This document shows positions 40,461 through 48,984 of a DNA stretch of 64,000 nucleotides, one piece after another. Numbering within the stretch: the stretch's first letter is position 1; each line of letters opens with the position of its first letter. A model generated the notes under the pieces. That model searched no databases, had not been told where the DNA came from, and was given only the letters and a program-made list of their open reading frames with translations. Source of the stretch: Bispira polyomma (taxonomy: Eukaryota). The DNA lies in assembly GCA_965649765.1 (NCBI GenBank), contig OZ287761.1, forward strand, positions 23,622,001-23,686,000. The letters run 5' to 3'. Made by a program: the position numbers and the translations under genes.

Positions 40461-41769
40461 CATTTACATCTAAATATGTGTACATACAGTGTAGAAGGTT
40501 GACTGTAAAAAAATCCACACAGATCCACTATCATAACCTTATATTATATATTATGCTTTATATAAAGAAATCAAAATGAGTTACAATTGATAGGCTGTCA
40601 CCCATACTTTTTTACTGCATACATACATAAAATAAATACAATTTGCCTCAATCTGAAACTATAATTAGTTCACCTTTACACTACACTGTTTTATAAAGAG
40701 TAACTTGTATTTCTTTGATGTGGATGTACTCTGGTGATTACATTGAATAGTTCACTTTATTATATATAAAGTACTATATATGCTGGCTAGTTAACACTCA
40801 ACTTCAGGTGTAGTAATGGAGTTTTTGTTTGATAACAAGGTAGGTCTTATAGTCTTAGTCTTTACCTTAACATTTATGTCTAAATTATATTTAAGACTGC
40901 CCTACTGCTCTAGTACTTTGTGTTAAAATGGGAAATATCCAGAGTTGTGTTTTGTTTTAATTCATTTTTTTTAGAGGCCCGCTTTTTGCCATTTTAGGCG
41001 AGCTGTGCGCTCTACTGAGTTGTATTTCTCGTTTTTGTTTGTTTGTATAATGTGGTTTATTTATATATGTATGTATCTATCCATACACTCGGTATCAACA
41101 ACTGTGGAAAAAAGTCCTATCTCACCAAAACCAGGAAGCCATTTGCTTTGGGGTTGTTTTTGTTCTCTATATGTGTGATAAGAAATCTATGTGATATGTG
41201 GGCCCAAGTTTTTCTGTCACCAGTTTATACACAGACTCATTAGTCACTGACTTACATCCTCCGTGACTCTTTGTGGTGGCGGCTAGGTTACGACAGAATT
41301 ATATATTAAGTATGCCACATAAAGAAAACTCAATGATGTGCTTTAGAAGATGCCTGGTATTAGTCAGGCACATTAAAAGTCTATCGTATCAATAGTAAGC
41401 ACTTTCACTACCAGTATAAAAGGAGATAGGTGCGTATAAATTTGAACACGGCTACAAATATTTAATATTGTGCTGTGATTATTTGATATTTATAGTCGGA
41501 CAAACAGGATCCCTGTGATGAGAAAGTAACTCTACCAATAATACAAAGGATCAGACCAAAGCTAACACACACAAGACAGTGGTTTGTACATGGATGGAGA
41601 GCAGTTTGAATAATTCTTTGATTTTACCATAGAGACAATGATTTGTATATCGATGGGGAGCAGTTTGGATTATTCTTTGATTTTACCATAGAAAGAAACC
41701 GTCTCCAGGGACCCACACATACACCATCATTGGTGGTAGTGTGTATGTATATGGTAGACAACTGCGAGG

Positions 41770-42262
41770 ATGCCACCTCCAACATTCGGATATAACACCG
41801 CACAGGCCGACTTCACTGAATTCCCTGGGGCAGCGGAGGGCAGCGACAACACCCCTCTTCCTCCCGTGGCTACATCGACAACCGATTCCTCGGGCACGGT
41901 GGCGCACCAGGCGGGCACCTCAGCGGGCATTGCATCAGCAGCCATCTTTGTGGTCGTTTTTGTGGCCGTGATTGTGATACGGAAAAGGATGCACCACGGC
42001 GGGGGAGGAAACGGCCGCTCCAAGCACAGTACCAGCGAGGGGGGTGATTCGGAGGCAGTCGGCGACGACTCTCCGTTTGACGACGATACTAAGTCACAGT
42101 CACAACGCTTCCAAAACTTGGCCCAGCGCCAGGTAAGTGAGATCTCCCGCGAGTCCCTCAACCTTCCGCTGTGGCGGGATGTGGACCGGGGCCTGAAGGC
42201 AGTGATAGAGAAGTACCTGATAGACTACCAGCGGCTGGACATAGGGAAGATTATAGGCAAAG
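41770..42262 (+). CDS. Gene 2 coding exon 1: short ectodomain, TM helix, juxtamembrane region, start of kinase
   Basis: ATG preceded by in-frame TAG at 41755; [23 protein letters not shown]; ends IGK G|gtgagt. Confidence 0.85.
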
Positions 42263-45200: not shown

Positions 45201-48200
45201 TTCTAATGACTGATTTGATTGACAAGTGTATTAATCCTTGTTAGGCGATGCTCCTGTGTGCTGATGTTTTATGTGTGATATATGTGTAAAGAGTCTAAAA
45301 TTCGTCACTGTATCTGAAATTCGCCCACCTAGAAAATGTTTGTGGTTTTGGTAGAATTGTGGGTATTATTTGCTGAAAATTGATATTTTTGTGACCACTT
45401 TGCCTTAACTTACCTAAATGGCTGACATTTTATGGGGTGGCGAGGATACAGTGGCGAATATTTAGGTTCCTTGCTCGATACGTCAGTCAATGTTATGAAT
45501 ATGAATTGATTTTAACATGAAGGCCAAATGGCCTGTAGTGGTTAGAAGCGTTAGCTAATAAGCACTGGTTTTCTCACCAAAGAATTGTGTCTGAATCCTG
45601 TTCGTTCCTTTGTGTAGGGTAATTTTGATTATAATTTTCACAAATTCTCCAAATATCCCGTAATCTTCTAGCAAGAAGCTCAAAATGCATTTGCTTTTCC
45701 GCCTGAACTTTCGTCACTTGGTCACAACTGAAGACTAATCACAACCTTTTTTTTCTCCTGTCGGACTAATCTTTTGCATAAATGATTGAGATGTGTGCAC
45801 CACAGAGGGTGAAGCCTGGTCATCATTGATTGTGTCGCTATGGAAGTAAAAACATTATATGTGTATATCTTTGCATGTGTCGTATTGTCAGATTACAGTG
45901 CGGGAGTTACTCAAGTTTGCTGTCCAAGTGGCAGAGGGCATGAACTACCTGGCCAGTAACAAGTTTGTACACAGGGATCTGGCTGCCAGGAACTGTATGT
46001 AAGTGTGTGTGTACACAGCGAGTTGCTGATGGTACGACTGTGTCAGGAGGGATAAGCTTTTTAATAGAGATGGCTTTTAAACTTATTTCTAAAAGTCGAA
46101 AGAGAAGGCGAGTGTTTTATATCTTGTGGTAGGTCATTCCATAACTTGGATGCAGCTTTTAAGAAACTACGATTGAAATGGACCTTTGATCTGTGTATGC
46201 TGCGATTAAAAGGTCGGAACTTTGAGAAATAATTGGTTAGAATTGCCACAACAGGTATTGCTGTGAGTAAGGGCTGAGATATGGGAGTCATTTTGGGAGG
46301 CCTGTGTTGCGAGACTTATAAACCAATGGGGAAGTTTTGAACAAACATCAAAATTTAACAGTAAGCCAGCATAAATCTTTCAAAACAGGAGTTATGTGGG
46401 TATAATACTTTGAGGTATTACTTGTGCTATGGGCTAGAATATTCTGTATTGCATGAAGGCGAGACATGTCCTTGGCAGACAAACTGTTTAGCAATGAGTT
46501 ACAATAGTCAATGCAACTGCTCGCGTGTGTATTAGCCAAAAGCATCTTCTTAAGCACAACAAGGGGCTTCAGTGACCTAGTGGCTAGAAGTGCTTGCTAA
46601 TAATCACTGGTTTCTCACCAAAGTGGTGGGTTCAAATTATGTTTGTTACTTGATATGGGTTAAAGTTATTCAGGTACTTGACATAGGTACTTGACATAGG
46701 GTTCTGGGAGTAACAAATGCTGTCGGTTTCAAGCCAATAACATAGGCATTTAAAGGGTTAATAAACACATATTTGTTTATAAGTGTAGTGAAACGTGTAT
46801 ATGAAAGACCAACCTAGGCAAACCTCAAAAGTTGTTTTTATGGACAAGAGGTCGGTTGTTATCATTAGACATTTGTATTTAGGAAATTAAGCTGCGGTCT
46901 TTATACAGAGGTTATCTCTCTGAAGAGGTGTGGTCTCTGAAGCAGGTATGACTGTACATCTCAAGGATATTGGTATTGTCATCATCAGAAATCTAAGTTA
47001 TTTCAGTTTCAGATGAAGCTTAAAATATACCTGAGCAGAGATTTTTTTGACTCTCCCAAAATGTTCTTGTAATAGAGGTTTGTTGTACTGTGTACTGACC
47101 ACACAGGATTGACCAGGAGATGGTGGTCAAGGTGGCCGACTTTGGCCTCAGCAGGGACATCTACACCAAGGAGTATTATAGCAGTGAGAACAGAAAGGCC
47201 AAACTACCCGTCAAGTGGATGGCCGTGGAGAGTCTGGTGAGGGCCCACTATACCAGCAAGTCTGACGTGGTGAGTGTATGTTATACATAGGAAGGGGCCG
47301 TTAGTGTTCTTACATAGTAAGGGGTCCAATTTTCCAGTCACTGATGTGGTGAGTGTTTATATAATGCTTGGTAAGTGGCCTATTAGTCTTTATACATAGA
47401 AAGGGCGTGTGTTAGTGGTTATGCATAGTACGGGGCTCACTGTATCAGCAAGTCAGACATGGTGAATGTTTATATAATGATTAGTAAGGGGCCTGTGAGT
47501 GTTTATACATAGCAAGGGCTCATTCCTGATGTAGTCAATGTTCTAAACGTTTGGTAAGGTGGCTGTCTGTGTTTTTAGAGTAAAGAGCACATTAGTGTAA
47601 AAACACAGTAAAGGGCCCATTATACCAGCAAATCTAATATGGTGAGTGTATTTACCGGTTGGTATTGAACTCTCCAGTTTTTGTACTTAGTAAGGTGCAC
47701 ATCAGTGGTTATACATGGCAAGGGGGCCACTATACCAGCAAAATGTGCCTCATTAAAGGGTGCATATATAATACATAGCAAGGGGCCGAATGAAATAGAA
47801 TGATATACAAACAAATACATTCAGATCATTAGTGAATGTTTTTAACTACCGCATTTTTAGATATCTTCTTCAATGCGAATAAACCTAGATACTTACCATC
47901 CATTTTAATAGAATTTGAAAATGTAGTCAGATTTATCTTTACAGTAAACAAAGATACACTTCAGTATGACATTTTCTGACATTTTTGTAACCTTTGATAA
48001 GTAACGAACTTTGGGTATTTTGTGTGTGTGCTTGTGCTTTCCAGTGGAGCTATGGCGTGTTGCTGTGGGAACTGCTGACCCGTGGGGCTCTGCCCTACCC
48101 AGACGTGCCCAACTGGGAGGTCAGAGAGTATATTGTGGCCGGACACCGGATGGGCCAGCCGGATACTTGTCCAGACGATGTGTGAGTATCTGTATATAGT

Positions 48201-48984
48201 TGTGTGTGTCTCCATGGTCAATATACAAATAGTAAGTGTCTAACACTTTCTTGCAAATACATTTTTATGAGTTTACTGTGAGTTGACAGTGAAAAGTGTC
48301 TAACTCTTTGTTGATTAGTACAAGTTGCCAACCGTGAGGTAAAGTGCCAGTAAATACAATGCCTTCTTTATATCAATATAAATTGCCAGTGTTAAGATCA
48401 ATGTTCAGATCCCAAAAGAGTCCATTGCTCTGTTGATATCAATACATAAGCTCGTCACTGAATAATGTCAAATGTTTTCTTGAGGTCAATAAAAGGAGTT
48501 TATCCTGTTCACTGGTGGCAACAATTTTACTATAGTTGTTCGAGATGATCAAATATATTTTTGTCCCTTCCAACTCTCAGTTTACTCTGATGTGCTTCTA
48601 CTGGGAGGAGGATTCCATCAAATAAAGTCAAATGATTTCTTGATATCCATGTGTAAGTTGTTACTTAATAGTGTCAAATGCTTTTGTGAGGTCAATATAA
48701 GCATTTATAGCCCAATAAAATGTCTTGTTTTTGTCCCCCTACCGCCGCTCAGGTTCACACTGATGCGGTCGTGTTGGGAGGAGGATCCCGCCAAGCGGCC
48801 GACCTTCCGCGGAATCCTGCAGTCCCTGAAGAGCGTCCTAGAACCACGTACCACCACAGTGGAAGATGAGGACGGGGTCTACGAACACTCCTACTGTAAC
48901 CTCTACCAGAATGTGGAGGCCTCCGAGGTGGATGGGGGAGGGGGGGACATGACGGGGGATACAGGGGGGTCCTATAAATACTGA
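41770..48984 (+). CDS. Gene 2: MET/RON (HGF receptor)-like receptor tyrosine kinase with very short ectodomain, 7 coding exons, 473 aa
   Basis: Exons 41770-42262, 42652-42753, 43009-43196, 45892-45998, 47107-47269, 48045-48181, 48753-48984 (1422 nt). Motifs: [71 protein letters not shown]. Confidence 0.92.
42652..42753 (+). CDS. Gene 2 exon 2: P-loop end and VAVK
   Basis: GQFGMVYQA...LVAVKSLK. Confidence 0.93.
43009..43196 (+). CDS. Gene 2 exon 3: alphaC helix to hinge
   Basis: [26 protein letters not shown]...[14 protein letters not shown]. Confidence 0.93.
43400..44105. repeat. Interspersed element with ~147-bp internal tandem array (Helitron/Helentron-like non-autonomous element, tentative)
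   Basis: tttgacct...tcaaggtcaaa units at ~43788, 43936, 44083. Confidence 0.6.
45892..45998 (+). CDS. Gene 2 exon 4: catalytic loop
   Basis: [35 protein letters not shown]. Confidence 0.95.
46040..46552 (-). mobile_element. LINE RT C-terminal fragment in RTK intron
   Basis: [10 protein letters not shown]...[12 protein letters not shown]...[13 protein letters not shown]...FRNKFKSHL. Confidence 0.85.
47107..47269 (+). CDS. Gene 2 exon 5: DFG and activation loop
   Basis: [37 protein letters not shown]...TSKSDV. Confidence 0.95.
48045..48181 (+). CDS. Gene 2 exon 6
   Basis: [21 protein letters not shown]...[12 protein letters not shown]. Confidence 0.95.
48753..48984 (+). CDS. Gene 2 exon 7: kinase end and Tyr docking tail
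   Basis: [16 protein letters not shown]...[13 protein letters not shown]...SYKY*. Confidence 0.92.

Follow-up and report, generated by a model that had tools for sequence, protein, structure and literature searches.

The receptor tyrosine kinase MET needs proximity and trans-phosphorylation of its activation loop to become active, and YxN motifs in its tail bind Grb2-type SH2 adaptors that lead on to Ras-MAPK. Receptor kinases with a short ectodomain are known from C. elegans (KIN-15 and KIN-16), and these we take to lie outside the MET family. The vertebrate MET-family kinase without an ectodomain is an isoform, short-form RON (SF-Ron), which has a membrane helix and no ligand-binding domain and is described as constitutively active and tied to cancer and immune regulation (PMC8800951). 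Another short receptor, STYK1/NOK, is credited with an ectodomain of 22 residues, no known ligand and a proposed ligand-independent or co-receptor activation (PMC13259870). Here we analyze a window of 64,000 nucleotides from Bispira polyomma (contig OZ287761.1, 23,622,001 to 23,686,000; coordinates are those of the window unless preceded by a C number) that carries a MET-like gene on its plus strand. We propose, from sequence, that this gene encodes an intact MET kinase tethered to the membrane, with a stalk of no more than about 50 residues, that would be activated by abundance or by a partner receptor and not by a ligand of its own; we give this proposal a probability of roughly 0.55.

The gene model joins seven exons into a protein of 473 amino acids (aa), with GT-AG introns and an open frame throughout (Table 1). 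As an earlier note on this DNA had described, an in-frame TAG precedes the ATG, to which a second TAG further upstream can be added, and about 50 residues are followed by a membrane helix and RKR. The stalk of about 51 aa is rich in serine and threonine and free of cysteine, and the helix (aa 52-70, about 41923-41979) is the most hydrophobic 19-mer, with a mean hydropathy of 2.98 and RKR directly after it. Exon 1 gave no Pfam match and, in a weak search with that exon alone, no homologue among proteins of 288-2000 aa. Contigs from three DNA runs (two samples of one study, possibly the same individual as the assembly source) match 40446-43215, which includes exons 1-3, with 0 differences and 0 gaps. 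The stops upstream of the ATG are therefore not an indel error, and an indel reopening the frame there was rejected.

Kinase and gene structure place this gene in the MET family, while the ectodomain by which a canonical MET receptor is recognized is absent. It shares with MET/RON and the lophotrochozoan Met and Met-LP the family's kinase, the intron positions, the tyrosines of the activation loop and the docking tyrosines at the C-terminus, but the Sema, PSI and IPT domains are missing. The glycine loop, VAVK, alpha-C Glu, HRD, DFG and three activation-loop tyrosines are all kept, the tandem tyrosines intact, so that the kinase motifs and activation loop stand as earlier written. Identity to human MET is 50 % over 272 aa of the kinase. 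A profile of the window exons and their orthologues, compared with the PDB, scored MET at 395 bits, RON at 363, MER/AXL/TYRO3 (the TAM group) at 320-332 and RYK at 268; an EGFR construct tops the list above MET because it holds two kinase domains. The MET-type intron positions proposed in the earlier note are borne out by a MET gene of the same genome at C4:43.2 Mb, which has the same position and phase at six of six introns, and by another at C4:43.4 Mb, where four of the six could be mapped and all four are equal. Membership in the MET/RON family agrees both with the PDB ranking (MET > RON > TAM > RYK) and with our trees, which leave the deep branching among MET-like groups unsettled and have STYK1 outside their sampled rows. 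The earlier note had also remarked on the lack of a Cbl-type DYR site in the juxtamembrane region. No DYR precedes the kinase in the window protein, as stated; this is not distinctive, since the four invertebrate MET-like proteins checked share the absence, and both vertebrate ones have the site.

Close relatives have the same short form. An NDYG insert before the beta-3 strand is shared by the window protein, P0008 and its cluster mate P0053, P0005 and P0063, as found when exon 5 and profile A2 served as queries. When a metagenome collection was scanned with P0008, two loci were recovered (L065 and L066), the contigs of P0008, P0005 and P0063 not being among them. A clade of eight groups Capitella teleta ELT92759.1 with the window protein, P0008, P0005, P0063, L065, P0010 and P0018; it is supported at 100/99 in a careful tree of 62 kinase domains, at 99 in the first tree and at 93 in a quick tree. 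The clade had been named from the insert and the scores before any tree was built; insert columns were kept, and rows were selected by hand from the matches with single-exon fragments excluded. Named proteins of molluscs, brachiopods, echinoderms or arthropods were not among its members, and no long protein with an NDYG kinase insert was present among the 160 proteins of the searches or among 128 new proteins from a library of 1.84 billion. Among the best 150 matches in that library P0005 scored 769 bits, and no other single-kinase protein exceeded 441.

The search for similarly short orthologues, suggested earlier, thus returned L065, P0008, P0005 and P0063, which are equally short: 25, 35 (44 in P0053), 32 and 8 residues precede the helix, respectively, compared with 51 in the window protein. 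In all five members with the N-terminus in view the stalk lacks cysteine, the eight residues after the helix carry a charge of +3 to +5 and the up to 15 residues before it a charge of -1 to +3, so that the side toward the C-terminus is the more positive one in all five, as in an N-out signal-anchor protein. Three of the five stalks have N-glycosylation sequons, the window stalk having none. A shared N-myristoylation signal was considered and rejected, as only three of the five start with MG. As a side observation, L065 has one extra intron in its equivalent of exon 3 (L065 1751-1884) that is seen neither in the window nor in the examined paralogues. As judged from these sequences, this is a real, conserved short-ectodomain branch of MET with one named annelid member so far. 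No description of the clade was found in the literature covered (mainly open-access, with subscription journals largely and supplements wholly outside it), and it is apparently undescribed.

The conservation of this layout bears on the idea that the gene is an artefact of assembly or a 5'-truncated duplicate in decay. Local duplications throughout the introns and the 3' end would fit such an origin, but the seven exons are open, the introns canonical, the DNA contigs in agreement over exons 1-3 and the same layout is retained in orthologues at 55-67 % identity, and we consider decay or artefact extremely improbable.

We searched the DNA upstream of the gene for a missing ectodomain. In 24371-41770, 120 ectodomain queries gave no ectodomain-like match, and 12 MET ectodomains gave 0 matches there versus 41 on a control MET locus, in agreement with the earlier statement that no ectodomain exons are recognizable in 24.4-41.7 kb. 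Pfam on P0008, P0005 and P0063 returned kinase families only and no Sema-PSI-IPT. We are confident that the ectodomain predicted here is tiny.

The upstream gene occupies 395-24371 on the plus strand, starting before the window and reaching back to about C14:23613500. It encodes a large single-pass membrane protein with an unusual mix of domains (C-type lectin, several CUB, LamG-like, a short Cys-rich part and six Ig-like) and ends with its own membrane helix, a short tail and a stop; the tail has several tyrosines, including an NPNY motif. Conceivably the kinase exons serve as an alternative 3' end of this gene, the product being a chimeric receptor whose ectodomain is large. The two genes are on the same strand with 17 kb between them, the phase in which the final Ig exon ends (phase 1) suits the acceptor at 41833, and paralogues in the same genome carry swapped ectodomains. 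Given that the upstream gene has a helix, tail and stop of its own, and that such domains occur in no clade member, we regard a chimera as very improbable.

The window gene is one of many related kinases in its genome. Exon 5 as a query gave 24 kinase matches in the 1.035-Gb genome, and the surroundings of seven were examined; exon 2 matched this locus only. Both C4 MET genes mentioned above carry PSI and IPT exons, and Pfam, which matched PSI and IPT, gave no Sema match in the one exon tried. A separate MET in the same genome, which had been named as a check, is thus present in two PSI/IPT-bearing copies, so the window gene is an extra paralogue. At least eight MET-like loci are found in total, several with other ectodomains; for three paralogues the tree partners are proteins of Helobdella, Capitella and Ridgeia, with a support of at least 100/97. 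These results point to repeated ectodomain swapping in the annelid MET radiation. A published survey of Met evolution compiled Sema-containing proteins (PMC6374515). With at least eight loci in this genome and several of them bearing other ectodomains, surveys keyed on Sema would undercount MET-family genes.

Several of these paralogues deserve a description of their own. The kinase at C5:26.11-26.14 Mb (L061-L064) is accompanied by laminin-N, laminin-EGF and IPT; having DRA for DFG and HKD for HRD, it is likely a pseudokinase. A laminin-EGF ectodomain is also found at C4:68.51-68.54 Mb (L053-L056), ephrin-receptor-like and IPT exons at C6:64.78-64.80 Mb (L045-L047), and exons that look Ig-like by eye, with no Pfam match in the one tried, at C11:27.34-27.37 Mb (L057-L060). 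In the tree, the C6 64.8 and C11 genes group with proteins of Ridgeia and Capitella. C6:46.04-46.07 Mb (L049-L052), P0151 and P0270 may represent a second MET-like clade with short ectodomains (100/98); P0151 and P0270 have 4 and 23 residues before the helix, respectively.

How the window protein begins depends on the first splice acceptor, which we scored with a matrix built from 52 acceptors of the Bispira polyomma genome. The earlier note took the AG ending at 41691 as the likely acceptor. It scores -2.0, as low as 8 % of true sites, and it is outscored by two open in-frame AGs ending at 41805 (+1.8, with 31 % of true sites as low) and 41833 (+1.4, 23 %), so that this choice is weakened. 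A mini-exon from 41692 to 417xx joined to 41805 is unlikely, its phase-compatible donors scoring -6.1 to -0.6, while the good donor at 41742 leaves an in-frame stop.

The two stronger acceptors are among a number of observations that weigh against our proposal. Codon bias per codon is 0.24 in 41770-41805 versus 0.87 in 41806-41922 (true exons range from 0.2 to 0.95). A candidate exon at 34653 has basic, hydrophobic and small-residue segments between its ATG and GT, with phases that suit both 41805 and 41833. In the relatives, the N-termini of P0005, P0008, P0053 and P0063 are database gene calls not checked on DNA, P0053 is longer by 9 residues, with a hydrophobic run, and three of the eight clade members (P0010, P0018 and the only named one, ELT92759.1) are fragments. 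The library of 1.84 billion proteins is clustered at 50 %, which hides cluster members, and multi-kinase proteins fill its top ranks. Finally, an alignment to human MET, for which we relied on what we take to be the MET hotspot positions, gave no sign of built-in activation in the glycine, catalytic or activation loops.

The splice-site observations would fit an ordinary, stubby type I receptor, in which a cleavable signal peptide is encoded by exon 34653-34710 or 34653-34748 and this exon is joined to 41833/41805, leaving a stalk of 30-40 residues and making the ATG at 41770 intronic. Both acceptors score within the range of true sites, codon bias steps up at 41806, and the candidate exon has no other match in the genome except for a repeat at about 34492-34550. 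Its signal-like character was assessed by hydropathy heuristics, with a filter fixed only after the candidate had been seen; under that filter sense-strand genic DNA yields 0.23 (strict) or 0.65 (loose) such segments per 17 kb by chance versus 1 or 3 seen here, and reverse-strand control rates are lower (0.04 and 0.34 per 17 kb). A stronger donor (5.2) lies after 34642, just 5' of the candidate's ATG, and could end a non-coding first exon. The orthologous locus L065 adds a further argument against a signal exon. There the best acceptor (+3.5) lies before an in-frame TAA, after which comes an ATG in strong context (A at -3, G at +4). The three open AGs closer to the helix have scores between -10.6 and -12.6, lower than any of the 52 true acceptors (the matrix being from the other species), so that no room is left for an in-frame signal exon. 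Taken together, we consider a type I receptor rather unlikely, and it seems probable, by a moderate degree, that the protein of this species has no signal peptide. The type III topology claimed earlier is thus well supported in L065 and less certain for the window gene, whose acceptors at 41805 or 41833 might receive a short exon coding for a signal peptide. Either way a folded ectodomain is lacking, as even with a signal peptide the stalk would have only 30-40 residues.

Among the described systems, short-form RON is by analogy the closest functional match, closer than STYK1. SF-Ron originates at a promoter that lies within intron 10 of the complete RON gene, whereas the window gene is separate, single-copy and in a clade of its own. 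For a similar internal-promoter origin from a full-length MET/RON gene we found no ectodomain exons upstream, and the neighboring gene is unrelated with its own stop. The SF-Ron ectodomain presumably has cysteines, while the window stalk has none. STYK1, offered earlier as an analogue, is a weaker one than claimed, because it belongs to another subfamily and is classed as a pseudokinase (PMC13259870), whereas the window kinase has canonical catalytic motifs and not the degenerate ones of a STYK kinase.

A nematode group (P0150 from Auanema, P0274 from Caenorhabditis sp. 36, and P0152) also has a MET-like kinase with 36-44 residues before the helix; unlike the window protein and its relatives, it lacks a place in their clade, forms a separate clade and has no NDYG insert. 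We presume that this group may correspond to that of C. elegans F11E6.8. A common origin of the nematode group and the clade is neither rejected nor demonstrated (approximately unbiased test, p = 0.176). F11E6.8 itself is classed as Met family (PMC6093410). At about even odds, we suggest that annelids keep an undescribed, conserved subfamily of stand-alone, intact MET kinases with neither signal peptide nor ligand-binding domain; this subfamily would be a counterpart, encoded in the germline, of the oncogenic short form of RON, would possibly have an origin in common with the nematode group, and would be one of several ectodomain losses or swaps in the annelid MET radiation.

We hypothesize that the membrane-to-kinase half of a MET gene was duplicated and that the present gene stems from this copy. 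Its product would insert with the N-terminus outside and the C-terminus inside, the helix most likely acting as a signal anchor (type III). The binding domain is absent and activation by an HGF/MSP-type ligand is therefore unlikely; with no ligand domain, the kinases must be brought close to one another by abundance, the membrane helix or a partner receptor, which are not separable here. As four relatives have the same stubby form, signaling probably needs no ligand of the kinase's own or goes through a partner receptor. Dimerization or trans-phosphorylation of the activation-loop tyrosines would then activate the kinase, and phosphorylated YxN motifs in the tail may recruit Grb2-type SH2 adaptors and lead to Ras-MAPK. 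Such motifs are present in four of five members (window, P0008, P0063 and L065, absent in P0005) as candidate docking sites.

A variant of this mechanism, compatible with a tethered kinase and changing its site of action, is that the full-length protein, owing to its short stalk, is cut directly by gamma-secretase, the working form being the released cytoplasmic kinase. Type III proteins whose ectodomains are shorter than 75 residues are cleaved full-length according to a source that lists MET and STYK1 among gamma-secretase substrates (PMC13507816), and the stalks here have 8-51 residues. We rate the released form as improbable. For the tethered kinase, a stand-alone gene of such shape across divergent species would show that an ectodomain-less MET kinase is tolerated and regulated in normal physiology, and it would offer a natural system for the control of a receptor kinase without a ligand.

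Table 1. The predicted MET-like gene, its exons and alternative 5' elements, in window coordinates
Feature	Position	Strand	Content
Signal-peptide-like coding exon candidate	34653-34748	+	Donors after 34697, 34710 and 34748; unproven, within chance
59-bp tandem duplication	41574-41692	+	Holds acceptor 41691 and its copy 41632; both weak scores
In-frame TAG	41755-41757	+	5' of ATG 41770; second TAG at 41737-41739
Exon 1 (as modelled)	41770-42262	+	ATG, stalk, membrane helix, RKR, juxtamembrane, kinase start to glycine loop; phase-1 donor
Alternative in-frame acceptors	41804-41833	+	Open AGs ending 41805 (phase 0) and 41833 (phase 1)
Exon 2	42652-42753	+	Glycine loop to beta-3 lysine; holds clade-specific NDYG insert; single copy in genome
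Exon 3	43009-43196	+	Alpha-C helix, hinge
Exon 4	45892-45998	+	Catalytic loop HRDLAARN
Exon 5	47107-47269	+	DFG and activation loop, three tyrosines
Exon 6	48045-48181	+	Kinase C-lobe
Exon 7	48753-48984	+	Kinase end; tail motifs YEHS, YCNL, YQNV; stop

The locus is rich in local repeats. In 48877-49770, the final 108 coding bases recur immediately behind the stop and run on into a 186-bp tandem array of four copies. The introns adjoining exons 1, 5 and 7 contain degenerate repeats of exon ends, splice sites included (42320-42550, 47330-47740 and 48575-48660). Further downstream, two AT-rich segments (about 58400-59450 and 61250-61920) resemble, by eye, coding remnants of retroelements of the long interspersed nuclear element (LINE) type. 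Elsewhere in the genome, four tyrosine kinase genes (L007, L012, L018 and L024) are intron-poor or intronless across the kinase domain, the first three being RET-, ROR- and FGFR-like by eye.

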